From: a virus
Reading direction: 5' to 3' (one strand)
IMG/VR virus record: IMGVR_UViG_3300023202_000205
Span: 1 to 64,000 of that record
DNA length: 64,000 nt
Both the position numbers and the translations under genes were made by a program. The notes beneath the pieces were generated by a model. That model was not told the DNA's origin. It saw only the letters and a program-made list of their open reading frames with translations, and did no database searches. Positions 806-60,557 of the stretch are shown here, piece by piece (position 1 is the first letter of the stretch; every line of letters begins with the position of its first letter).

Positions 806-1741
806 TTATTCTTCTAACGCCATCTGAGCGAGGGCAACAGCTCCACTGAGAGTGGTGTGTCCGGCCAGGAACCGATTGGGGTGGCAAAAGATACCACCCG
901 TAATACCAGTCACTTTGTCGAGCTCCTCCCCTTGGAGTCCCGCCCAAGGCTCCGGAAGCGATTTTCGACCGTTGAACGACCCGGGTTTGCTAGGTACCTC
1001 CTGAACTCGCCAGGTATTTGAGGCATCATCGGGAAAGATAACGTAGAGTATCTCGGGGAACTCCCTGGAAATTACGTCCATCGCTGCTGGTTCGTACTGC
1101 GAGAATTGTATGACCCCTTTGAAAAGTGGAGCCGCACCACGGACTCGGATAGCGGACAGCGACTTGCGTGAGACCCCACGGATAACATCCAAGAGGACTG
1201 TGACGGCGAGTTCGACCGCTTTGTCAAAATCCTTCCGATCCCCGACCTCGCGGTTCATTCCAAAGATGATCTGGTTAAACGAGACAGTGGGTACCCTGAC
1301 CGCTCCATGCGTTCCACGAAGAGTTTTGTGCCCTTCCACAGCGCCACAATCGGAGGCGTCGATTGCGGAGACGAATTCTTTGTCCACCGTTTCCGCGATT
1401 TCCTTACAGGCATCGTGGCTCGCTACGGTGGTCAGCTTCTGGATCACCAAATCTCCGAAGTGCCTCCACACGAGCCCAGCTGACGCGTAGGGTATACCAC
1501 CGGGCCTCGGCGCGGGGCCTCCTTCCCGCATGTGGTGGTCGAGCCGCCTCTCGTCAGGAATGTACTTACCCCCGACATCGATCACCCAGGCACCCTTGTC
1601 TTGGTGCTCGTTAATGACTTTCTCGTCTCGTGTACGAATGACCTGCAGGTCCTCCCCGTACACGATCTTGAGTATTGCCACGCCAACGACCTCGTCAGCG
1701 TGGAATATACCGTGGTGAGTTACTACGGTGTGTTCCGTCAT
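806..1741 (-). CDS. myg1: MYG1-family (UPF0160) DHH-type exonuclease
   Basis: Motifs THHGIFHADE, IDVGG, LDHHM, YASAGLVWRHFG, SRKSLPEPWAGL and GIFCHPNRFLAG, with a strong SD (AAGGAGG). Confidence 0.9.
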   Translation of the reverse strand: MTEHTVVTHHGIFHADEVVGVAILKIVYGEDLQVIRTRDEKVINEHQDKGAWVIDVGGKYIPDERRLDHHMREGGPAPRPGGIPYASAGLVWRHFGDLVIQKLTTVASHDACKEIAETVDKEFVSAIDASDCGAVEGHKTLRGTHGAVRVPTVSFNQIIFGMNREVGDRKDFDKAVELAVTVLLDVIRGVSRKSLSAIRVRGAAPLFKGVIQFSQYEPAAMDVISREFPEILYVIFPDDASNTWRVQEVPSKPGSFNGRKSLPEPWAGLQGEELDKVTGITGGIFCHPNRFLAGHTTLSGAVALAQMALEE

Positions 1742-1746
1742 GATGC

Positions 1747-1794
1747 ATCCTCCTTAGGATCACGTGGTTTTATGGAGTGTCTATATAACACCCC
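1747..1794 (-). promoter_or_regulatory. Conserved leader/RBS element, copy B (upstream of MYG1)
   Basis: Near-identical to 221-269. The SD lies in an ATCC-TAAGGA-GGAT hairpin. Confidence 0.6.
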
Positions 1795-2700
1795 TCTCGT
1801 AGCTCTACCCCTGTCCATTCAGGGTGTTACCGACAGCGCATCGGTATCCGCTTCCTACCACGTGGAGGTGGCTACTTGAGGAAGCAAGGGCACCAACAAA
1901 GCGTTGGTGCCCTAGTGCCTAGAACGGCACCATCAAAAACGCAGGCCTGGCCTTCCCGGCTTCTTCTGAATTGTGGGAAAGCCCAGCCACACCATTTACG
2001 TTGGCTTACGGGGTTATACTCTTTTCCATGAGTCGCGGGATTATTTGTCCCACATTTCCATACACGTCCATGGTCCTAACGATAAGTCCGTAAATCGTTC
2101 AAAGCCCCCGACACACGCCGGGGTAGAAGCTCCTTCTGATAAACAGGTTGCATCGTAGCCCATTTGTCCGCTATGGCGTGCGTACCCCTCTATGAATGTC
2201 CCTACCTAGTAGGAACGCCCACAGTAGCGCAGTGGGAAGAGGGTTGAGAGAGCCGAGCAAAAATAGCTCTCAAGGACACGCAAGGCCCTACCTTTATATG
2301 GATTTAATCCAGCGGCTCCACGTAACCGCAAGAGCAGTAGGGAGACGCCACTCTCCTAACTACCCCCGAGACCCTTACGGCCTCTTCCACCGGTAAGGAC
2401 AATCTGCAAGGTTCCGAGAACCCGGTGGGACGCTTCCCTCATTTGCAAGGGACGGGGTGCGACGACCCCTCTCCATAGGTTCGGCGACTGCATGCCGTCG
2501 CCTATCTATAAAGTTGCGCTGCTGGCTTAGGATATCCATGGCTTTCACCACAGGCTCTTTTCAGCTCAGCTTACTCGGTATGGGCGGTTACTTCCGCCCC
2601 CTAGAAATCCTGCCACCTGGGCAGTGTCTATCGGATGCCACAGATCCGTTACCGAGCTGGGTTCCTAGCGCCGTCGCTAGGTACAACCCAGTACCAGCTA
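1786..2700 (-). ncRNA. Candidate large structured non-coding RNA (~0.9 kb), family unidentified
   Basis: No minus-strand ORF of 60 aa or more. There is a continuous series of hairpins and multibranch-closing helices. Several stems need G-U pairs that work only on the minus strand (2536-2554 with a GAAA tetraloop, 2312-2329, 2248-2271). Confidence 0.5.
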
Positions 2701-2864: not shown

Positions 2865-4160
2865 GTGATCGATCTTGACGACTGTAGCATACCCGCATAT
2901 GGTTTCGCCATGGCGAAGCTGCTCTGTGTAACCCCCTGGCCCGGGTTGAAAACCCATTACGGTCGTGTACCCGCTGGGCTTATCCCCTTGTGGAAAAAGC
3001 ACTTCGAGGAAGTAGCCATTTGGAGTACCTACGGAGGGCCAGAGGATGGGGAGGACCCCACGGGTACCAGCCGTACCTGGCATGAAGACAAACCACTGCT
3101 AGAGCGGCTTACCCAGTTGGGGGACCTCATTCAAAGCGGAGAATGGAGCCACATTTGGATTCTCGGTGACTTGGGCTTCCTGTCAGATCTTGCAGGTCTC
3201 GGCCTGACTCAGTCCAACCTTCCTAATCAGCTCCTTTATGCGTATGCCATAATCGACACTCCTTTTATCGATCAAGAATACGCTAAGCTCGCAGCACATT
3301 ACGATTTCTTCGTATGTCTCTCCGGAATGGCTACGGGTGCCTACGTCGAACTCGTAGCAGGCCTTGGCCCTCAAGCACCAAAGGACCTCTTTAAGGGAGC
3401 CCTTCATTGTAAGACAATCAGGCCAGGGGTCGACAACACCGTCTTTTACCCACTCGATTCCCACAAAAGGGAGTTTGGCAAAGAAGAGCTGCGAGAGGCT
3501 ATCTTCGGAGGTCGTGTAGCCAAGGACGACCTGCTGATCATGGTCTCTGGGCATAAGTCACGAAGAAAGGGTATCCCACAAGCCTGCTCCTTGGTAAGCC
3601 AACTACAACCGCTCATAGGAGATCGGAGAGTAAAACTCTACTTCCATATGGACTGCCGCCCTACCGGGGACCGCCCACTCAATATCCCCATTCTTGCCGA
3701 GGGGTGCGATTTGAACTCCCGCAAAGACGTGCTTTATGCAGACGGTTTCTTCCGTGATGGCAAGCCCACGCTGAGTGACCAGGATCTCAACCAGCTCTAT
3801 AACTCAGTGGATTTGGTGCTCTGTCCGGACATAGCCAATGGGTGGCCTTTCACCGCTTCGGAGGCTATGGCTGCCGGGACTGTTGTAGCTGCCCCTGGCG
3901 ACCACGTCTGGCTCGACCTACTCGACCGACGTGGTATCGAACTGCCCTGCACTGAGTTCGGCTGGGCCCCTTGGTCACGCTCGGAAATGGCCCGCTTCAT
4001 AGATCCCGGCGTATCCGCACAAAAAATCGCGGAAGTAGTTAACGATATCAACCGTTACGAGGAGACTCGGGAAGCGGGAATACGCTGGGCCTTTCTCGAC
4101 CGCACTTCTTCTTGGGACTACTCCGCCGACCAATGGTTAGGGCTCTTTGGTGTTGCATGA
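2865..4160 (+). CDS. Glycosyltransferase, GT-B fold, GT4-like (probable start ATG 2910)
   Basis: N-terminal TPWPGLKTHYGRV. C-terminal HKSRRKG and LNQLYNSVDLVLCP...NGWPFTASEAMAAGTVVAAP, a variant of the GT4 E-x7-E motif. Confidence 0.8.
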   Translation: MIDLDDCSIPAYGFAMAKLLCVTPWPGLKTHYGRVPAGLIPLWKKHFEEVAIWSTYGGPEDGEDPTGTSRTWHEDKPLLERLTQLGDLIQSGEWSHIWILGDLGFLSDLAGLGLTQSNLPNQLLYAYAIIDTPFIDQEYAKLAAHYDFFVCLSGMATGAYVELVAGLGPQAPKDLFKGALHCKTIRPGVDNTVFYPLDSHKREFGKEELREAIFGGRVAKDDLLIMVSGHKSRRKGIPQACSLVSQLQPLIGDRRVKLYFHMDCRPTGDRPLNIPILAEGCDLNSRKDVLYADGFFRDGKPTLSDQDLNQLYNSVDLVLCPDIANGWPFTASEAMAAGTVVAAPGDHVWLDLLDRRGIELPCTEFGWAPWSRSEMARFIDPGVSAQKIAEVVNDINRYEETREAGIRWAFLDRTSSWDYSADQWLGLFGVA

Positions 4161-5755
4161 CAATACCTAACGTCTTTCACTTCCTCTTCCCTACCCAACC
4201 TGTAGGAGATAGGGCTCCCCTTCCTTTTAGCCCTCACCATTATTTCTGCCTGTATTCCTGCCTCGTCACTCAGGGAGCACAGATTATTCTTCACACAGAT
4301 GGGGAGATCTCAGGGGTGTGGTGGGATGCTATCAAAGATGATATCGAAGTACGACATCGAGAATTCAGCCAGACACTTGACTTAACAAGGCTGGAAGTCC
4401 TTATAGAAGAGGGTGGTGTCTACTCGGATATCGACACCATTTTCATCAAGTCACTTGAGCACCTTTTACAAGATGATCGGGTTAAGCTTCAAAAAGAACA
4501 GAACGGGCTGCCAAGTAATAGCTTGATAGCTAGCCCTACGGAGCACCCGTTTCTTCAAGCATGGGTTTTCAGCAACCCTTCTCGACACCTTCCACAAGAG
4601 TTGCAAAACCGATTCTCAGAACAGCTACGCCTCGAGGAGCTGGAAAAGCTAGATAACCCTTCCTGGGATCCCCTTGGGGCACAGTCTCTCTTTACTAATG
4701 ATGTGAGCCTAAACAACAGTTATCTCGTCAATCTCTGCCAACGGGTAAACTGGGAAAAACACCTCAAGCATAATATACGTGACGATATCATTTACGAGTA
4801 CAACTCTACTCTTAATAAAATATTGAGACGCTTCGTACCCAGGCCCTCTTTCGACTTTACAGCTGTCATACCTATTCGGGTAGAACATCAAGATCGGTTG
4901 GAAAACGTACTAGCTGTTACTAGCTACTTGGTCAACCAGCTCTGCGTTAACCACGTTATCGTTGTAGAAGGTGGAGAACGCCCCTCCTTGATGCATCTTT
5001 TGGATAAACGAATACGTTACATCTACGTTCAACAATCAGCAGAGGATGTCTGGAATAAGTCTAAACTGGTCAACTCGGCTATGCCTTGGATCAGCACTAC
5101 AGCGATGGCTATTTGGGACGCGGATGTACTTATCTCCATGATGCAGCTAAGAGCTGCAATGAAGATACTCGAAGACCCAGAACACTCGGCCTGCATCCCC
5201 TGTAGCTCCATGTATCACATTAAGCGCGAATTCCTGAGCGACGCTCAAGTAGGAAGGTTAAACCCTGGTGGGATCCTAGGTAACGAAGATAATATCCTTT
5301 TTACGATGGAGACCTCTACGGCAGCAGGTTTATTTATGCTACGTACAGATGTGTTCAAACACCTGAGAGGATTGAATGAGCAATACTGGGGGTGGGGTTA
5401 TGAAGACGATGACATGCTCGTACGGGTTATTCGGCTTACCAAAGGGCACTTGCTTAAAGTGACTGGGCCTATGTTTCATTTCTCACATCAGCGGACTGAG
5501 AACAGTTGGCCCGTTCAAGAACATGGGGAGCGCTCAGAAGCCCAGCGAGCTCGGGCAACCAAAGGCCCTATAGAGCAGTTAAGACAGTACCTCGGTATTA
5601 CCGAGGAGATAGGGAGCTACTCCAAAGACATCTTTCCAAAGCCCCCCAATGAGGAGGAGCGAGAGTGGATGATAGCGATATATGAAAATGCCGTATCCGG
5701 TAGTCCTACTTACTTTACCCCTCGTTCTGACTTACCCCAGCTAAGGAAGCGTTGA
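4157..5755 (+). CDS. Two-domain glycosyltransferase: GT32-like DxD domain plus GT2/GT7-C-like domain
   Basis: The start overlaps the upstream stop (ATGA, 4157-4160). MTIPNVFHF...EEGGVYSDIDT...SNSLIAS is GT32-like. TAVIPIR...IWDADVL...RGLNEQYWGWGYEDDDM is GT2/GT7C-like. Confidence 0.8.
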   Translation: MTIPNVFHFLFPTQPVGDRAPLPFSPHHYFCLYSCLVTQGAQIILHTDGEISGVWWDAIKDDIEVRHREFSQTLDLTRLEVLIEEGGVYSDIDTIFIKSLEHLLQDDRVKLQKEQNGLPSNSLIASPTEHPFLQAWVFSNPSRHLPQELQNRFSEQLRLEELEKLDNPSWDPLGAQSLFTNDVSLNNSYLVNLCQRVNWEKHLKHNIRDDIIYEYNSTLNKILRRFVPRPSFDFTAVIPIRVEHQDRLENVLAVTSYLVNQLCVNHVIVVEGGERPSLMHLLDKRIRYIYVQQSAEDVWNKSKLVNSAMPWISTTAMAIWDADVLISMMQLRAAMKILEDPEHSACIPCSSMYHIKREFLSDAQVGRLNPGGILGNEDNILFTMETSTAAGLFMLRTDVFKHLRGLNEQYWGWGYEDDDMLVRVIRLTKGHLLKVTGPMFHFSHQRTENSWPVQEHGERSEAQRARATKGPIEQLRQYLGITEEIGSYSKDIFPKPPNEEEREWMIAIYENAVSGSPTYFTPRSDLPQLRKR

Positions 5756-8147
5756 GGTCCCAGGCCATTCGGGCTACTGCCCAATGGCTATCTGTTTCAT
5801 TGATCAGGAAACGGGAATCTCTAAGCCGCGAGGAAAGTTCCATAAAAGAAGGCATGGCTATGATGGGGCTCGCTAAGGACTGTCGTAGCTCACTCTTTTT
5901 GACGAAAACTGCCTCATCTCCATACTCTGGAAAGACATCACCCTGCTCAATACCGTAGAAGACCAACTCTAGTATACGGGTAGCAGCTGTGCTGGATTTA
6001 TACGTGTTGTGTGTGTCCAGGTCGACGGCCGCCGAGGTAAGGCGGGGCCTAGGGCAGTGATCTGACACCTCAGGTAAGGTGACGTCCGCCAGATCCCGGT
6101 AGAAACTCTCACTACCGACATCCAAGCTCCTTGCTCTCAGTACGGCTGGCAGTAGGAGGAAGATACTTCGCAGAGCTCCGTAGTCGATAGCTTCACCAAT
6201 CGAAAGTTGAAGCCAGTCAGGCTGAAGCCGACTCAAACGAGCCGTACGCTTATCTACACTGAGAATAACGTTCTTATACCCATCTGTCTTATTGAAGACC
6301 TCCGCTAGCTGATGATTACTCCACTCGGTGAAAAGCGGCATGGGATCGTTGTAGTGATCATCCAAGTCCTCAATAGTTGGGTTCACCCAGATACGCGCAC
6401 CAAACGCTTGTGCTAGACGATTCACCATATGTGGCTCGTTGGTCAGCATAACACCTATGCCACGCCTATCATGTCTCGTTCTCACCAAATTTCCAAGCAG
6501 GGTCAACAGTACTCGGCAGAAGGAGGTGTTTCTAAAGGAACTCCATTCCATCTGATCGAGCGGCGCGGGGAGCGGTATGCCCGGTCCCTCGACTAAACTC
6601 TTCGTAGCATAGAGGTTGTTCTTATCGACGGTGAAGTTGGGCATGCGTAGCTTGCCATCGTTCCAGCCATACATTTGATCTGCCATAATGGGTGTGGGTA
6701 CATGAAATTGCTGAGCGACTTCAAAGAGCTTCTTGGCCCACACGTTTTCGACGTGGGGGTGATAGCCTGCCTCTAAGAGGACCTTCTGCTGAAGCCACGT
6801 ACCTGGGTTTTTCTTAATGTGAGAAAGCCAGTCCTTGAAAGGAAAGCTATGTCGGTCTCCCCTAGGAGAGCGATAGGTGATTGTCCCAGTGACCGTCGCA
6901 TCGCCAGATCCTTCCTGAGGCCTCACCTGTTCCAAATAAAGCTTGGCAGCACTGATGATCTTTCCTCGAACTACCCAGCCATCCTCAGTGTCGGTAATAG
7001 CCACTCCATTCCAGGAGATCGTCTCGTCCCGGATACTACTGCTGAAGATGCGCTCAAGATGCCGTGCGTCGTCCCCAGATACGTGGGACAATACTTTGGC
7101 TCGATCGTTCGGATCGATTGACCGGCGGCTCAGCTCTGGTCGGGCCTCATCGACTTTCGTGTCCAGTAAGCGATATGCCACACTCTGATGAGCAGGGAGT
7201 GCGTTGATGATCTCCCGTCGAAATTGACCCCAAGAGCCTCTCAAAGGTACTTCTCGTGTCATATCTCCCCGAAAGACCGTATGGGCTACAATACGGGCTC
7301 CCGGCGTATTGAGAGCTCTAAGGTAATGTTGAAGATTGCCTGCAGGACTCCAAAACACGGTCGACCCAGAATTACATGTCTCCAGGTTATCACGGAAACC
7401 ATGTGTGCAGAGGAATGCGGTCGGAATCCGATTACAGGTCTGCGACCAGAATACCATGCGTAGCGCTACAACCGGGTCGTCGACGACGACTGAGAACTCG
7501 GAAGTAAACGACGAGAGTAGAGCAAACCCGGTCCCGATAGCTGGCTCGTGCGATACCGGCAAGTACCGGCACCCCTTCACCGTCAGCAACCAGAAGCCAA
7601 CCAGTTCTATACCATCCCAGCAGGGGATCCCTACGGCTACGTACCTCTTCCACCAGGAAAGCGTCGATTTGGCTGTATCGGGCAGCTCGATGCCCGCTTC
7701 CTCGAAGTCATCCTTTCTCAGGACACATACGTGGGGAAGCAAGGCCCGGATATCTGGGTTGGGTACGTTGATATTTGCCCCATCGAGCACCGCTTTAACA
7801 GATCCTGCCACATTGCGACGTAGACGGTCCGCCCACTCCTCCAAGCAGTCCATAAGCTTCTGCCGTCGCTCGGAATTGGCCAAATAGGCCCTTCTGGAGG
7901 CCCCCTCGTAATCCACGAGAGACAGCTCCCGCAGGTCGTCAAGAGTCTCCTCAACAGAGCGGTCCCGATCTACTGCTAGAAGTTCGATCAGATCACCAAT
8001 AAAATGACACTCATGGCAGTGGACCTGCACGTCGCTCCGGATCTCCAGCTTGCTCCGCCCATTGCACAACGGACAATCAGTAGCCAGTGGGTAACGACGC
8101 CCCTGCTCGATACCCAACAACCTCAAGATATTATGAGGGTCCAACAT
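5715..8147 (-). CDS. Primase-like protein: N-terminal Zn finger, degenerate TOPRIM, DUF927-like C-terminal region
   Basis: CPLC...HCHEC zinc finger, VVVDDPVVALR (TOPRIM-like) and YGWNDGKLRMP (DUF927-like). No intact Walker A was seen. Confidence 0.5.
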   Translation of the reverse strand: MLDPHNILRLLGIEQGRRYPLATDCPLCNGRSKLEIRSDVQVHCHECHFIGDLIELLAVDRDRSVEETLDDLRELSLVDYEGASRRAYLANSERRQKLMDCLEEWADRLRRNVAGSVKAVLDGANINVPNPDIRALLPHVCVLRKDDFEEAGIELPDTAKSTLSWWKRYVAVGIPCWDGIELVGFWLLTVKGCRYLPVSHEPAIGTGFALLSSFTSEFSVVVDDPVVALRMVFWSQTCNRIPTAFLCTHGFRDNLETCNSGSTVFWSPAGNLQHYLRALNTPGARIVAHTVFRGDMTREVPLRGSWGQFRREIINALPAHQSVAYRLLDTKVDEARPELSRRSIDPNDRAKVLSHVSGDDARHLERIFSSSIRDETISWNGVAITDTEDGWVVRGKIISAAKLYLEQVRPQEGSGDATVTGTITYRSPRGDRHSFPFKDWLSHIKKNPGTWLQQKVLLEAGYHPHVENVWAKKLFEVAQQFHVPTPIMADQMYGWNDGKLRMPNFTVDKNNLYATKSLVEGPGIPLPAPLDQMEWSSFRNTSFCRVLLTLLGNLVRTRHDRRGIGVMLTNEPHMVNRLAQAFGARIWVNPTIEDLDDHYNDPMPLFTEWSNHQLAEVFNKTDGYKNVILSVDKRTARLSRLQPDWLQLSIGEAIDYGALRSIFLLLPAVLRARSLDVGSESFYRDLADVTLPEVSDHCPRPRLTSAAVDLDTHNTYKSSTAATRILELVFYGIEQGDVFPEYGDEAVFVKKSELRQSLASPIIAMPSFMELSSRLRDSRFLINETDSHWAVARMAWDLNASLAGVSQNEG

Positions 8148-9096
8148 GCTTAGTATGCCCCTTAATCAGGCCTTCAAGATCCTTGGCCGGCCAGAATTGC
8201 TTACCAAGGAGGCTTCGGTTAACGAGGAAGACTATTCGTTTTCAGACCGAAATGCAACCTTCCGCTCGTTCGTCACGGCACACGTCAAGCAGGCCGATGT
8301 CGACACCATTCGTCACTGTGTAGAGCACGCCGACTTCTGGGGCATCCGTGATGAGTGTGAAAAGGCTATCCAGAAGTTGGCCGAATGGAAAGCTCCGGAA
8401 ATACCGGAGGATGCCTACGCGCTGGTACAGCAGCATGGGGAGCAGTCCGTTCGGAAGTACGCTGCTTATGATGCTGGTAGTACCTTCGACGCGGCAATCG
8501 CCTTCCATGAGAACAAGGCCAAATACCCACTTTCCTGGCGCAAAGAGGCCGCTGTGCGGCTACTTTCGAAAGCAGCCCGATACAATGTACCCCTCCCGGA
8601 ATACGTTGAAAACGGCCTGCACAAGAGCGCTGGCTTTGGCTTCCCTACCAAGGAGTCAGTGGAAGAAGCCATGGTCTGTCGCCTGAACCATACCAAAACC
8701 GCTCAAGCAGAGGTCGGTGATAGGCTCAGTACGCTTCTTGAGCACATGATCGATAACCAACAACTGCGCTACGATGAGGGGTTCGTCAAACAGGCAGTGA
8801 ACGCTCTCGAGCAGTTCGATGCAACCACTGGTCTAACAAGTCGTTACGACTCTGACGTTAGTCTCCCTGAAGAGCTGTTGGCTACTACGACCAACGAGCT
8901 GGAGAAACTGGCTGGCATCAGCAAGCGCGCTGTTGAATTGGTCAACGGCCGTACGGTCGATATAGAGGATCTGACCAAAGAAGCCCTGTCTGCAATCGAC
9001 CCTGGGCTAGCCAAGATGGCTCAGGACGAACTGATCGACGTTCTTCCCACCCTTCCTAAAGGCGACGCGGACCTCCTATTCCGCCTTACGGAGTAA
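8146..9096 (+). CDS. Hypothetical phage protein rich in K-x-A motifs (probable head-associated protein)
   Basis: 316 aa with SD GAGG at 8135-8138. Contains LTKEAS, VKQAD, QKLAE, RKYAA, RKEAA, SKAAR, HKSAG, TKTAQ, EKLAG and AKMAQ. Confidence 0.6.
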   Translation: MLSMPLNQAFKILGRPELLTKEASVNEEDYSFSDRNATFRSFVTAHVKQADVDTIRHCVEHADFWGIRDECEKAIQKLAEWKAPEIPEDAYALVQQHGEQSVRKYAAYDAGSTFDAAIAFHENKAKYPLSWRKEAAVRLLSKAARYNVPLPEYVENGLHKSAGFGFPTKESVEEAMVCRLNHTKTAQAEVGDRLSTLLEHMIDNQQLRYDEGFVKQAVNALEQFDATTGLTSRYDSDVSLPEELLATTTNELEKLAGISKRAVELVNGRTVDIEDLTKEALSAIDPGLAKMAQDELIDVLPTLPKGDADLLFRLTE

Positions 9097-9100
9097 TGCC

Positions 9101-9469
9101 ATGTCTATGTACCAAAAGCTCGGACAAGAAGCACCTGATGACTTCGACTTCAGTGGCATTCCTGAGGCCTCTTACAACCCCATGACGAACCCCTATCTCC
9201 AAGAGGGGTATGGGGCGCCCACAGGCGTTGGAGCGGGCTTAGGGGCCGGCGCAGGTGCCCTCCTGGGCTATTTGCTGCGCGACCGTGACAGAGATGAAGG
9301 GGCCGGTGCTGCTCTTCGTGGAGGGCTCCTCGGTGCCGGGCTCGGAGGCCTTGGCGGCGCGGGGTACAACTATGCCTCTCGTGCAGGAGATGTTAGCGAT
9401 TCCCGAAATGCCATCCAGACACTCGTCAACACGCTGAACCAACGGGGCATCCCACACCCTCTCGGATAG
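9101..9469 (+). CDS. Glycine-zipper membrane-type protein
   Basis: GVGAGLGAGAGALLGYLL-RDRDRDE-GAGAALRGGLLGAGLGGLGG helical hairpin. Confidence 0.7.
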   Translation: MSMYQKLGQEAPDDFDFSGIPEASYNPMTNPYLQEGYGAPTGVGAGLGAGAGALLGYLLRDRDRDEGAGAALRGGLLGAGLGGLGGAGYNYASRAGDVSDSRNAIQTLVNTLNQRGIPHPLG

Positions 9470-9510
9470 TGTTCGCGTGAACACTCTTTCCCCTCTGTAG
9501 GAGCACTCTC

Positions 9511-18694: not shown

Positions 18695-19351
18695 CTAGTC
18701 CGTAACCGTACGGCCAATGGGCTCATTCAGCATGAGCTGCTCCATCTCGGCCTGGCTCTGTGGCTCGTTTTTAAGGCACTCGCACCAGGAAGCCATATAG
18801 TGGCAGAGACGCTGCTTCTTGTGTAGCAGCATTTTCCGGTAGGACTCCATAACGTTAGCCTGCCGCATCAGCTGGATCTGGGCGAAGGCATTGTTGTCCT
18901 CATCATCGGCGTTGACCGTCGCTTCCCGGATACGCTCATAAAGCCCGTCTGAGTTGGGCCACCCATTCTCGTCACGGAAACACTCGATTGGCTCAACTGA
19001 GTCCAAGCGGCGTAGTGGGTCACAGGCTGCATCAGGTTTATTGCAAGGAGTCCCCTCCCTGGGTGGTACCTTGCACTCCTCTACAGCAGCCGCCGCAGGT
19101 CCCGGCGCCTCCTTATCCGGGTCTGGTGGGCCAAAGAAGAAGTCGATAACCTGGTCGATCAGGCCCTGTTCCTCCTCAGCTGCCGCTTCTGCGGCGGCCT
19201 CGGGGTTATCTTCTGGGCAGTCATCTACCTGCTGGTCCTCGTCCTCCTGCTTCTCGTCGTCGGTACGCTCGCCACGGAGCGCCGCCGCCAACTCGTTCCG
19301 GAAGGCGTTTCTCTTGGCCAGGAAAGCGATGGTGTCTTCATGAAGCGGCAT
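18695..19351 (-). CDS. Acidic, Cys-containing hypothetical protein
   Basis: 218-aa ORF overlapping the sigma-factor stop. Confidence 0.55.
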   Translation of the reverse strand: MPLHEDTIAFLAKRNAFRNELAAALRGERTDDEKQEDEDQQVDDCPEDNPEAAAEAAAEEEQGLIDQVIDFFFGPPDPDKEAPGPAAAAVEECKVPPREGTPCNKPDAACDPLRRLDSVEPIECFRDENGWPNSDGLYERIREATVNADDEDNNAFAQIQLMRQANVMESYRKMLLHKKQRLCHYMASWCECLKNEPQSQAEMEQLMLNEPIGRTVTD

Positions 19352-21693: not shown

Positions 21694-22144
21694 CCCGCCT
21701 CCCGTAAAAGACGATGATTGCCGCTAACTGATCGAGTGGAGACAGGGAGCTCCGATATACCTCCAAGAGCTCCCCATCGAGGAAGTTGAGAGCCTCTATG
21801 TGATCCAGGTGGCTGAGGACCGTACTCACGTGTTGCTCAAAACCGGTCTGAGCCTCAAATTGCCCAACCAGCTGTTCGCGAGTGTATGTGACTCTCGTAT
21901 CGTCCACAGTAATTGTGTTCGCGAGAACACTTTCTTCGACCACCCAGAGAAGTTGGATAGCGTAGAGGAATCTGAGTAGCGTATCAACTTCTCCGCCGAA
22001 AAGGACCTCCTCCCCCACTGCGGCGTCTCCCGTGTAAGTCTTTACGTATACAGGGTCTGGCCAAAACACGTCACCTACGGCCGACGAAGGGTTCGTTGGC
22101 TGTGTACCACTATTTTGAAGCGTTACGAGGAAGGAGTTGATCAT
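21686..22144 (-). CDS. Hypothetical baseplate-region protein
   Basis: TGATG overlap with the upstream gene. Confidence 0.55.
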   Translation of the reverse strand: MINSFLVTLQNSGTQPTNPSSAVGDVFWPDPVYVKTYTGDAAVGEEVLFGGEVDTLLRFLYAIQLLWVVEESVLANTITVDDTRVTYTREQLVGQFEAQTGFEQHVSTVLSHLDHIEALNFLDGELLEVYRSSLSPLDQLAAIIVFYGRRDD

Positions 22145-36508: not shown

Positions 36509-36554
36509 ACGTGCTCCCTACTGTCACAGATACCAAGCCTCTGAGCGGGCATAT

Positions 36555-50795: not shown

Positions 50796-52181
50796 TTACT
50801 CTTCCTTCGCCTCACGCCCCTTGGAGCGGGCCCGAATTTGGAGGTCCAGAGGAACACTACCCTCCGTCGCGAGATGCTGGCGCACGTAACTGATCATTTC
50901 AGCGCGACCAAAATCCGGATTTACCGACATGGCCGCGTTGTAGGCATCGATGACCTCTGGGGTGCTGTGCCCACTGATGTAGTCGTCCTGCATCAGGTTC
51001 TCGATCGAGCTACGGGCGTCGATGTTCCTCATCTCTTGGCGAAAATCATAGCCTGGTGCCTGAGGGCCACCCTCGCCTTCAGGGGCACCGCCACCAATGG
51101 CGTGCTGGAGCACATCTGGGGTAAGGCCGGTAAACTCCTCAGGAGCCTTTTCGATAGGCTCAGCGAACTCTCCCAGGCTCGCAGACACGTTGGTCTGGAC
51201 GCCAAGAGGACTATTAGAGTAAGGAGAACCGGCTGCTTCTTTTGGGAACAAGGCATTCTCCGCCGCTGACTGCTGCTCTTGCAAAATGCCCCGAGCAGTG
51301 TGAACGTCGGCCGCCTCCTTCCAAAGAGTGTCCGCGCGAACACAATGTTCTGCTAGCTCATACACCTTGGGCAGGGCGTAAATCCTAGACGCTGTCTTCA
51401 CGCTCAAGTCTGCCCGCTGCTCACCGAACTTCTCGATATCGCAGGTAGCGAAGATCATATCAAGCGTCGCCTTCTCAGCACCCATCGCCGCAGCAGTTTT
51501 CTCTACCTCAGCCCACTTGGGGGCATCGAGCCGCCGCATCCCATTAGCTACCTTCTGCATCTCACCCATGCAGTCATCGACTCGCTTGAGGTACCTGAGG
51601 TTCGCTTCTTCAATACCAATGCGGTAATGACTCAGCTTGGCGAACGGGGTTGGATTGACGTATTCAGCTACCTTCTGCTGAGGCTCCGAAAGCCCCCAGC
51701 CCTCGCGCAACTGACCAGCATAATCTGGCTGCTCTTCGCGTAGCCGATAATCTCCCTGCTCTAAGTAGCTATTTGAAGCCGACTTACGAAGATCCTCCTG
51801 GATCTCGTCGGCATCTGGTGCGTCCATCTTCGCCTCGGTATCCTCACCAGGCGTCTCTTGGACCCCATAGCGATACCCGGTGTTCTGGTCTGCATTAGTT
51901 GCAGGCTGCGTATCCCCATGTGGCCGCACCTTCTCCGGGTCGATCAGAGGAAACTCCTTCTCCCGGTCATCTTCAGGGCTGTTTTGAATGTGAGCAAGCT
52001 GCCGCCCGTTATTCACCGCGTGGGCCACGACTTCGACCTCGTGGTCGTTCATGTCGTTGTCCTTGGCGATCTTGGAAAGCGCCGCATTAGGCTCGACTCC
52101 GACATTCATGAGACCAACGGTCTCCTCAGCCGCTTTCATCAGCTGATCCTGCCGAGCACTGCTCATGAGCTGTTCAGTCAT
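50796..52181 (-). CDS. Probable head protein (K-x-A rich)
   Basis: LMKAAE, LRKSAS, MQKVAN, VEKTAA, VKTAS, PKEAA. Confidence 0.55.
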   Translation of the reverse strand: MTEQLMSSARQDQLMKAAEETVGLMNVGVEPNAALSKIAKDNDMNDHEVEVVAHAVNNGRQLAHIQNSPEDDREKEFPLIDPEKVRPHGDTQPATNADQNTGYRYGVQETPGEDTEAKMDAPDADEIQEDLRKSASNSYLEQGDYRLREEQPDYAGQLREGWGLSEPQQKVAEYVNPTPFAKLSHYRIGIEEANLRYLKRVDDCMGEMQKVANGMRRLDAPKWAEVEKTAAAMGAEKATLDMIFATCDIEKFGEQRADLSVKTASRIYALPKVYELAEHCVRADTLWKEAADVHTARGILQEQQSAAENALFPKEAAGSPYSNSPLGVQTNVSASLGEFAEPIEKAPEEFTGLTPDVLQHAIGGGAPEGEGGPQAPGYDFRQEMRNIDARSSIENLMQDDYISGHSTPEVIDAYNAAMSVNPDFGRAEMISYVRQHLATEGSVPLDLQIRARSKGREAKEE

Positions 52182-58769: not shown

Positions 58770-58799
58770 GCATCAGCTCCAATAGTGTTCACGTGAACA

Positions 58800-60557
58800 C
58801 TATTTCTGCTCAGGTAGGGCAGGTCTCTTACCCCCACCAAACTGGGGAACCCCTGTGCCCAGCCGCCTGATAGGTTCACTTCCCACTGCCGGTTTGATAT
58901 CAGGCTTCTTGATGCGCTGTCGAGGCCTCAAGGTCCCACTATAGGTGACAGACGGATCAAGTGTCAGCGCACTGGCCACTAGATGTGGATTCTTCGCAAA
59001 AAGAGCCCCCATACGCCTTCCCCGGGACCCTCGTCCCAGATCGCTGAAATCGCCTGTGCTCATTGCCTGAGCTACTTCCTCACGGTTTCGGGCGATGAAG
59101 CGTTGGGCACTCCTCCCAAGATCGCCTCGTCGACGGAAACCATGGTGAACCTCCTGGGCCATCATAGCTGGGACCAACTGAGGATTGGTACTCGCCAAGT
59201 CACCCAACAAGCGGGCGCCACTACCCTCTATGCCCTCCAGCTCCCTCATCAAGCCACGGTCCTTCATGGCCCGCTCTCCCAAGCGCTGAATAGCAGTGGT
59301 GTCCCCACGCTCCTTGGCGCTCTCGAGCCGGCGGCGGTAGCGACTGTCGAATCGAACAGCCTTATCCAGGGCCTCTGCCCACGGTTGCTTCTGTAACTGG
59401 GCATAGGACTGCGCAGCTGGCTCAAGCAGCTTCTCAGCATCGGCTCCGAGCTGAGTACGGAGAACACCTGACTGACCTACCAGCTGCATAGCGGTCATTG
59501 GGTCAATGCCTTGCTGGTCAGCGATGTCGGCCGCCTTGGCCATTTGACGCGCGTCGATCATGCCACGCCGGGCAAGATCTCCCAGGTAGTTAGCTGACTG
59601 GATCAATTGTGAAGGATCCTCAGCGTAGCCCTGTCCGAGGCGGCTAGCCAACGACATCGCTCCACCAAAGGTCTGAGCAAGGCCCTGCTTGTGAAGTGCA
59701 TCAGCCGATTTGGCGATGTTGGCGGCATGCGCCATGTTCGCCCGATTACCCAGCCGCTCTCTGGCAAAGCCCATCGCGCTTGCCGCTAGCTGAGCAGGGA
59801 TCGGACGCCCCTCTTGGTTGAACCACCCTTGGTTATACGCTTGGCGAAAGTTTTGAATGTTCTGAGCGAAAAGACCCTCGTCGAAACGGCCTTCATTTTG
59901 GGCCATCGTCATCTTCACAAACGGGGAAAAATCGGCAATGAAGTTAGGGTCCATCGCGCTCAGAGTAGACGCAAGCTCGGGCACCGCAGGAGCTAACTGC
60001 CCATACATCATCCCTAGCTGCTGGGGCGGCATACTCTTGACCCAGCTAGTGGCCGCTTCGCCACTCAGCCCACCGAGCCAGTCCTGCCGGATATTCTTGG
60101 GGATCTTGTTGATCCACTCCCCCGCCATGTCCGCAATCCGACCGACGAGACGGCCACTCTCCTGGAACTGTCTGCCCATCATCTCACGATTAACACGAGC
60201 TGCTTCGCGGGTCGCCGCTGGATCGCCGCCGTACCCGACCTGGATAGGCTCCATCAGATCAAGGCCGGTTTTCTCCTTCACCCACGGAGCTACGAAGGGA
60301 AGCAATAGCGCTGGCGCCGTTCCCATCTCCCCCATCACGTTCTGCAAAAGGCTGATACCTATGCCAGCAGGACTGGTTGTATTGCCTTCCCGCCCTGCAA
60401 ACCCAGGTACTTGCTGACTCTCATATTGAGCGTGCTGAGCTCGACGTTGATTGACGTCAGGAAAAAATCCCCTGAAGCCACCCGGAGGCGGACCACCTGG
60501 TCTACCTGGTTGCTGCACCTGGGCGAACTTAGTAAGAGCTTTCTTACCTAACGTCAT
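58800..60557 (-). CDS. Helical A/Q/G-rich protein (tape-measure-like or ejection protein)
   Basis: 585 aa starting MTLGKKALTKFAQ, with helical low-complexity composition. Confidence 0.45.
   Translation of the reverse strand: MTLGKKALTKFAQVQQPGRPGGPPPGGFRGFFPDVNQRRAQHAQYESQQVPGFAGREGNTTSPAGIGISLLQNVMGEMGTAPALLLPFVAPWVKEKTGLDLMEPIQVGYGGDPAATREAARVNREMMGRQFQESGRLVGRIADMAGEWINKIPKNIRQDWLGGLSGEAATSWVKSMPPQQLGMMYGQLAPAVPELASTLSAMDPNFIADFSPFVKMTMAQNEGRFDEGLFAQNIQNFRQAYNQGWFNQEGRPIPAQLAASAMGFARERLGNRANMAHAANIAKSADALHKQGLAQTFGGAMSLASRLGQGYAEDPSQLIQSANYLGDLARRGMIDARQMAKAADIADQQGIDPMTAMQLVGQSGVLRTQLGADAEKLLEPAAQSYAQLQKQPWAEALDKAVRFDSRYRRRLESAKERGDTTAIQRLGERAMKDRGLMRELEGIEGSGARLLGDLASTNPQLVPAMMAQEVHHGFRRRGDLGRSAQRFIARNREEVAQAMSTGDFSDLGRGSRGRRMGALFAKNPHLVASALTLDPSVTYSGTLRPRQRIKKPDIKPAVGSEPIRRLGTGVPQFGGGKRPALPEQK

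Follow-up and report, generated by a model that had tools for sequence, protein, structure and literature searches.

The 1.1-kb gap (1741-2865) between the leftward MYG1 gene and a rightward glycosyltransferase gene contains three elements rather than one: a large structured non-coding RNA on the minus strand, a candidate HDV-like self-cleaving ribozyme and the leader of the MYG1 mRNA. The initial annotation had described a single RNA of about 900 nt with its 5' end at 2700. Its large structured minus-strand RNA was borne out, whereas the last 100 nt belong to the ribozyme candidate and the start of the leader, and the RNA begins about 20 nt further 5' with a 13-bp hairpin at 2719-2689. The minus-strand RNA structure is almost certainly real, and the large RNA is probably one discrete molecule of about 835 nt.

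The window, the whole stretch of 64 kb that was analyzed, is the first part of a virus record of 179,364 bp that is 96% complete according to CheckV. The genome encodes a multisubunit RNA polymerase, a PolA-type DNA polymerase and seven tRNAs, the latter near 98 kb. Judged by RNA polymerase beta, the nearest annotated phages share about 30% identity with it; these are the cultured Salmonella phage Arash and Vibrio phages D69, D148 and D181 (181-188 kb), which differ from the window's phage in matching neither the large RNA nor the 810-aa product of a neighboring gene. A blastn search of annotated phages with the large RNA gave zero matches. The 810-aa product is a zinc-finger protein (5715-8147) without a Pfam or PHROG family that has 73 relatives with E below 1e-30 (cluster representatives) and is a conserved marker of the phage clade. 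The features of the locus are as follows.

806-1741, minus strand: MYG1 (UPF0160) family gene (PF03690, E 1e-64), co-oriented with and directly downstream of the RNA
1747-1794, minus: 48-nt repeated mRNA leader module of the MYG1 gene, outside the large RNA
1754-1749, minus: ribosome-binding site of the leader, after the hairpin
1794-1774, minus: leader hairpin, 8 bp
1799-1885, minus: HDV-like self-cleaving ribozyme candidate, predicted cut between 1886 and 1885
1885-1879/1856-1850, minus: ribozyme P1, 7 bp, starting with G
1875-1871/1803-1799, minus: ribozyme P2, 5 bp
1869-1867/1859-1857, minus: ribozyme P3, 3 bp
1866-1860, minus: ribozyme L3, 7 nt
1865-1864/1849-1848, minus: ribozyme P1.1, 2 bp
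1846-1840/1834-1828, minus: ribozyme P4, 7 bp
1826, minus: candidate catalytic C, first J4/2 position
1824-1820/1813-1809, minus: extra 5-bp hairpin in J4/2, inserted after C1826
1886-2720, minus: large structured non-coding RNA of about 835 nt, with ends deduced from the promoter motif (start) and the predicted ribozyme cut (end)
1887-1913, minus: 11-bp hairpin that would close the released RNA at its 3' end, 1 nt short of the predicted cut site
2420-2570, minus: rest of the conserved 5' domain, a GAAA-capped arm (2553-2536) and a long arm, with covarying pairs 2565/2525, 2550/2539 and 2509/2475
2574-2656, minus: four-way junction of three hairpins closed by a 7-bp helix; the homologue L031 keeps 27 of 27 pairs
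2689-2719, minus: 5' hairpin of 13 bp with 3 G-U (13 pairs on minus, 0 on plus)
2721-2737, minus: promoter-like motif, single copy in the genome, directly 5' of the RNA
2769-2865, no strand: group of three G+C-rich DNA palindromes, each a C-run and a G-run 3-4 nt apart, plus one copy of a 16-bp palindrome (2827-2842); the stretch separates the promoter from the glycosyltransferase gene
2910-4160, plus: divergent GT4-like glycosyltransferase gene (weak PF00534), locus marker in relatives

The 915-nt region folded on the minus strand with -386 kcal/mol, which corresponds to z -5.2 against dinucleotide shuffles, the control proposed in the initial annotation. The plus strand reached z -7.8, and since both strands fold far better than shuffles, folding energy alone cannot set the strand. 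The region had been described as paired almost throughout; this holds for 2724-2421 (z -5.4) and 2150-1886 (z -5.1) and not for the middle third of the RNA body, 2420-2150, which at z -0.85 folds no better than chance. All named stems were recovered, each shifted by no more than 1 nt from its stated position: the nested stem at 2657-2691 (7 bp outer, 7 bp inner), the 7-bp helix 2650-2656/2574-2580 with its hairpins at 2632-2648 (5 bp), 2610-2624 (5 bp) and 2582-2599 (6 bp), and the stems at 2312-2329 (6 bp), 2248-2271 (7 bp) and 1887-1913 (11 bp). The GAAA-capped stem is also present, with 7 bp including 3 G-U, and ends at 2536-2553 instead of 2554. It forms in full only on the minus strand, as do the stems at 2312-2329 and 2248-2271, in agreement with the initial description.

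Overall the structure consists mostly of local hairpins and small junctions. Unpaired loops offer one complement (374-379/496-501 in RNA numbering) and three are palindromic; among the long-range pseudoknots looked for, none covaries between the window RNA and L031, a comparison of two sequences. The loop of the long arm contains a self-complementary 6-mer (2495-2490) and is invariant in L031, which makes it a candidate homodimer kissing loop. The gap is indeed the longest ORF-free stretch of the window, as had been noted, with ORFs of only 40-85 aa inside it. A coding role of the RNA body was ruled out by comparison with the homologue, which revealed seven indels of 1-2 nt and no codon-phase bias, and therefore no conserved reading frame.

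Evidence for selection on the structure comes from L031, the one true homologue. Its first 306 nt are 77% identical to the window RNA and its glycosyltransferase is 64% identical. The L031 contig stops after 386 nt of the RNA region and the alignment decays beyond about nt 310, so that 2724-2415 is covered. We predicted 84 pairs with P above 0.8 from the window sequence alone and examined their state in L031: 58 were unchanged, 6 were kept after one-sided and 11 after double-sided changes, 6 were broken and 3 gapped. When the identical 69 substitutions were relocated at random (20,000 trials), 2.0 double-sided changes (maximum 9) and 20.6 broken pairs were obtained. The four-way junction alone carried 6 double changes, while slid controls showed none. 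Covariation of the kind that the initial annotation had called for is present between these two sequences over about the first 310 nt, and it indicates that the 5' third is a minus-strand RNA structure under selection.

The 3' two-thirds of the body have no homologue among the loci examined. A model of the four-way junction matched only its two inputs, with filters on or off and in other genomes too, and its weak matches elsewhere were G/C DNA palindromes. Exact-pattern scans of IMG/VR returned L016's phage or chance matches only, and the identical copies L001-L003 and identical strains of L032 and L042 offered no sequence variation to use.

The A+T-rich tract that had been pointed out 5' of the RNA was confirmed (26% G+C). 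The motif at 2737-2721, directly 5' of the RNA, has one match at up to 2 mismatches across 179 kb and is conserved across 12 related phage loci. Related contigs were reached by following three neighboring genes, with homologues of the GT4-like glycosyltransferase used to locate L020, L031, L032 and L042. The motif occurs at the equivalent place in L004, L006, L007, L008, L013, L016, L017, L020, L031, L032 and L042, and at every locus reaching this spot the arrangement is the same: G/C palindromes, then the A+T-rich motif, then about 10 nt on a 5' hairpin. Folding of the 5' ends at 12 loci showed that a hairpin opens the RNA at the equivalent place in all relatives, often with an identical 4-nt core. 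From this recurrent arrangement and the single genomic copy of the motif we infer a dedicated promoter with a transcription start near 2720.

Behind the motif, the slot in L006, L007, L013, L016, L017, L020, L032 and L042 is filled by folded sequence of 0.6-0.97 kb with z between -5 and -16; among seven complete relatives the size is about 0.6-0.97 kb, mostly 0.8-0.9. Across seven loci, the promoter strand has GNRA, UNCG or CUUG loops on 23 of its 192 hairpins and the opposite strand on 2 of 187 (p 1e-5); in genome tiles the count is 7 of 590. This excess fixes the strand and indicates RNA; the window RNA adds a single such loop. Together with the covariation in L031, the strand-specific tetraloops bear out the earlier argument for RNA over DNA cruciforms.

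The sequences in the slot are nevertheless not shared. Shared words and local alignments of the distant syntenic RNAs with the window and with each other were at shuffle level, in relatives whose neighboring proteins are 35-58% identical. Neither the four-way-junction model nor any Rfam family matched these RNAs; L032 has 11 matching nt in a junction at a comparable position, which at P 0.09 were left uncounted. On this comparison the slot is conserved and its cargo is either not conserved or diverged beyond detection. As there is no shared sequence and no junction-model match, the distant RNAs may be unrelated cargo rather than one family.

The 3' ends also differ. In L013, L017, L020 and L042 the RNA ends in a long hairpin with a U-tract, in the window and L016 in an HDV-like ribozyme candidate, and at the far end of the L013 gap a twister-P1 ribozyme is found (E 3e-11). 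Such differing 3' devices at one place argue that a defined 3' end matters. Genes downstream of the slot vary among MYG1, Ro60, HD domain and small ORFs. Those for RNA handling are MYG1 in the window, L020 and the P0006 contig, which has the same gene order as the window (GT4, a 1.4-kb gap, MYG1), and Ro60/TROVE in L004 and L017. In L008 the promoter leads to tRNA-Met and a tRNA-like cluster, and in L004 to an unstructured gap (z 0.08), a T-loop-like piece and a TnpB remnant, followed by Ro60.

Further observations concern the same contigs. The type-P1 twister of L013 (9207-9268, 60 bits) closes another structured RNA, about 0.5 kb long and containing repeated hairpins, which is located behind the 0.97-kb RNA. 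A weak match to a type-P5 twister (E 0.66) lies at L007:16246-16318, just before a gene start. The Ro60/TROVE gene of L004 (15830-18074) lies behind the T-loop-like piece and a remnant of the TnpB 3' end, of which 8186-8353 is a second copy, and that of L017 (11850-16306) behind tRNAs and a weak YrlA match. L021:369-951 is a 580-nt gene-free stretch without an Rfam match, directly before a MYG1 homologue. The Cytophagia label of L004 and L030 stems from a metagenome bin and was not accepted as host evidence.

The contents of L004 and L008 would fit a different reading of the locus, in which the slot holds a patchwork of small RNAs and hairpin modules that are transcribed together and, as in a tRNA array, separated by the ribozyme and host nucleases, with no fold of 835 nt. 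The predominance of local hairpins and small junctions, the weak middle third, the end of similarity to L031 near nt 310 and the unalignable distant relatives would all fit such a patchwork. We nevertheless consider it rather unlikely: the seven complete relatives are narrow in size, start with the 5' hairpin and mostly carry a single clear device at the 3' end, the window RNA contains neither a tRNA nor another small family, and L031 is colinear with the window over five successive domains, linkers included.

The discrete large RNA that we prefer would end at a ribozyme. The by-eye reading in the initial annotation had overlooked the HDV-like candidate at 1885-1799. It has the full double-pseudoknot core of HDV-like ribozymes: a 7-bp P1 starting with G, a 3-bp P3, an L3 within 7-8 nt, a 2-bp P1.1, a P2 that closes the outer pseudoknot, and P4. 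A descriptor of the HDV core found a single match in the whole genome, at 1885, and another at the corresponding place in L016. The Rfam model RF02682, which represents the F. prausnitzii type of HDV-like ribozyme, likewise gave only one match per genome, in G000, the window's genome (E 0.0026), and in G002, the genome of L016 (E 0.0013), both below the gathering score (23.6 bits for the candidate versus 44); a third relative and 14 controls gave no match.

Comparison of the two copies supports the structure. Between the window and L016, 5 of 7 pairs of P1 are changed on both sides, a single compensatory change occurs in P2, neither P3 nor P1.1 varies, and P4 has 7 and 8 bp, respectively. After P4, both copies place two A residues opposite each other and then a C, which is C1826 in the window; HDV-like ribozymes have their catalytic cytosine at this position (PMC10879173). 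J4/2 is short in L016, whereas in the window a 5-bp hairpin is inserted, for which the literature searched gave no precedent in HDV-like ribozymes. As the Rfam alignment of the window ribozyme has no place for this insertion and shows a U in the catalytic position, we regard activity as likely but not certain.

With the RF02682 ribozymes the candidate shares P1, P1.1, P2, P3, P4, an L3 that has 7 nt and the same pattern, the candidate C at the start of J4/2 and a bulged A beside the first P2 pair. It differs from them in its score below gathering, its J4/2 hairpin and its position behind a large phage non-coding RNA and not before glmM. Theta ribozymes are HDV-like and cut 3' of phage tRNAs (PMC10879173), and they share with the candidate the phage origin and a cut site where a structured RNA upstream has its 3' end. 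They lack P4 and trim gut-phage tRNAs, whereas the window's candidate has a 7-bp P4 (1846-1828) and would trim an 835-nt RNA; with no tRNA in the window at the cut site, it was rejected as a member of that group.

Downstream of the ribozyme, the leader module recurs as copies that are 79% identical at 221-268 of the window and 179003-179050 of the genome. In each copy a hairpin of 8-9 bp precedes a ribosome-binding site, and pairs differ from copy to copy. The copies at 221-268 and 179003-179050 have identical flanks, lie near both contig ends and precede different genes. The 8-bp helix 1829-1822/1793-1786 of the initial annotation is present but probably not part of the functional fold, since it competes with the leader hairpin at 1794-1774. 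In nested arrangements the leader hairpin plus the ribozyme stems gave -43 kcal/mol, compared with -30 kcal/mol when this helix forms. The helix covers C1826 and could block the ribozyme; on these energies it is probably a misfold and less likely an off-switch.

A switchable or slow ribozyme would be central if the whole transcript were a long regulatory 5' leader of the MYG1 operon, in which cleavage tunes mRNA stability or translation and the upstream piece is a by-product. The competing helix, the co-orientation with MYG1 and the lack of an intrinsic terminator between them (from a sigma-70 promoter/terminator scan that was uninformative) are compatible with this, and an HDV-like ribozyme 5' of glmM in Faecalibacterium prausnitzii has been proposed to be regulatory (PMC6765202). 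A leader role is nonetheless improbable, as the long RNA persists among relatives whose downstream genes change, a hairpin with U-tract forms its 3' end in four relatives, MYG1 already has its own leader module with a ribosome-binding site, and 800 nt under pairing constraint far exceed what a leader needs. In the MYG1 gene itself, the first 120 nt of coding sequence (1620-1739) fold unusually well on the minus strand (z -5.5).

Upstream of the promoter, 3 of the 13 G/C palindromes of this type fall within the 100 bp at 2769-2865, and similar ones precede the promoter in relatives. Because they are strand-symmetric they are probably protein-binding DNA sites. The 16-bp palindrome occurs in about 20 copies genome-wide, mostly at gene junctions (2827-2842, 9469-9484, 21915-21930, 51328-51343, 58785-58800 and some 15 more), and by this distribution is likely a phage promoter or operator.

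Three clustered palindromes kept in relatives and a unique promoter at a strand switch could also mark a replication origin or packaging site, with the palindromes as binding sites for an initiator or terminase and the transcript serving, like ColE1 RNA II, as the precursor of a primer. The conserved 810-aa zinc-finger gene 3 kb away might then encode a primase or helicase, a guess for a protein that matches no Pfam or PHROG family. We consider an origin very improbable. The cyclic phosphate formed by an HDV-type cut cannot be extended as a primer, the slot carries tRNAs in L008, and no G-rich tract of the hybrid-forming type is conserved.

The preferred large RNA belongs to no catalogued family that we could detect. 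The Rfam search suggested at the outset, run with Rfam 15 over 6 kb around the RNA at E up to 5, found no family at gathering level for the body. Three weak matches were obtained, of which one was the HDV-like model at 1885-1818; the other two, RsmW and Atu_C7, were dismissed as chance. Covariance models for OLE, MISL, RNase P, group II intron, SRP, 6S and the other Rfam 15 families gave no match. No tRNA or tmRNA was found in the window RNA by ARAGORN or Rfam. The Rfam group I intron model is known to miss divergent introns; it gave no match, and no interrupted gene was present at the flanks. The RNA is not a recognizable Y RNA either, with no YrlA match at the RNA and no Ro60 gene in the genome. 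Ro60/TROVE genes after the slot in L004 and L017 recall bacterial Y RNA (Yrl) with Ro60, but the window RNA is about seven times longer.

The closest parallels are GOLLD and ROOL, which self-associate into cages, GOLLD through self-interacting kissing loops (PMC12286853). Like these, the window RNA is phage-encoded, falls within 600-900 nt, is heavily paired and has neither a reading frame nor an established function; a relative has tRNAs at the locus, and the window RNA has a candidate self-kissing loop. It differs in its lack of a model match and of a covarying pseudoknot, in a 3' end set by a predicted ribozyme, in conservation of the 5' part where the universal part of GOLLD is 3', and in far faster turnover between related phages. 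The GOLLD model RF02032, which covers the conserved 3' domain, had no match in three genomes at E up to 1; ROOL (RF03087) had no match in the Rfam search and the three-genome scan at E up to 1, run without a positive control, was blank. Neither model matched any syntenic RNA. That the RNA is a very divergent GOLLD, ROOL, OLE or MISL missed by the models is scarcely credible given these blank searches and the conserved 5' part, despite a size, phage host, variable middle and palindromic loop that recall GOLLD (PMC12286853). Of the two options left by the initial annotation, a divergent member or a new class, the latter is thus favored by the lack of a detectable GOLLD or ROOL match; the best reading is a new family that is GOLLD/ROOL-like in kind. 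The literature searched gave no description of it.

We propose that transcription runs leftward from the single-copy promoter through the folded RNA and into the MYG1 operon. HDV-type ribozymes cut at their own 5' end, and the ribozyme folding behind the RNA would cut between 1886 and 1885. As small ribozymes leave a 2',3'-cyclic phosphate (PMC6765202), the cut would free the large RNA with this group 1 nt behind the 11-bp hairpin, an end that should resist 3' trimming, and would leave the ribozyme on the MYG1 mRNA, folded like a cap over its 5' end. In relatives the long hairpin and U-tract would lead to the same outcome. The product would be a stable, abundant RNA that acts by shape and not by sequence, as a scaffold or decoy for host or phage RNA-handling proteins. 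Given a discrete RNA, a scaffold or decoy role is fairly probable in our analysis, because shape and size persist while sequence does not. Myg1 is a 3'-5' RNA exonuclease (PMC6582341), and the MYG1 and Ro60 neighbors fit a role in RNA protection or turnover, without proving it. The RNA may also self-associate through the conserved palindromic loop, although an RNA-only oligomer is doubtful. The explanation as a whole, a promoter-driven large RNA that is released by a ribozyme and serves as scaffold or decoy, has our qualified preference.

A wider interpretation is that the clade has a dedicated RNA-expression slot, with a unique promoter, a 5' hairpin, an exchangeable 3' terminator or ribozyme and a rapidly replaced cargo of 0.6-1 kb. 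The RNAs would be protein-free scaffolds or decoys that change under host pressure like counter-defence proteins, the window member oligomerizing via its palindromic loop and set free by an HDV-like ribozyme whose J4/2 domain is new. All parts together are conceivable but speculative. To our knowledge very few known phage RNAs exceed 500 nt, and none of them has a proven job; the window adds an uncatalogued one with covariation support. Both of its ends are predictable from sequence, and therefore the RNA can be made and its structure solved directly. If active, the ribozyme would show that HDV-like trimming of 3' ends in phages reaches beyond tRNAs to giant RNAs, and it allows a test of whether a hairpin inserted into the catalytic strand is tolerated. 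The nine large RNAs that occupy one homologous locus and cannot be aligned form a natural panel for asking what, if not sequence, is conserved.

Elsewhere in the record, two 47-nt direct repeats, 60 nt apart, occupy positions 1-107 at the contig start, in frame inside a short ORF. The genome also encodes a Cas12m-like protein (166465-168345, or L027:2465-4345, minus strand; E 2e-40 versus a solved Cas12m). Three repeat arrays accompany it, at 104744-104953, 165061-165609 and 171996-172800, together with several solitary repeats, one of which is inside the window near 36530. An array spacer near 172654 is an exact 34-nt match to window positions 19251-19284, within a 218-aa ORF (18695-19351). 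Such a self-targeting guide would fit RNA-guided repression of one of the phage's own genes.
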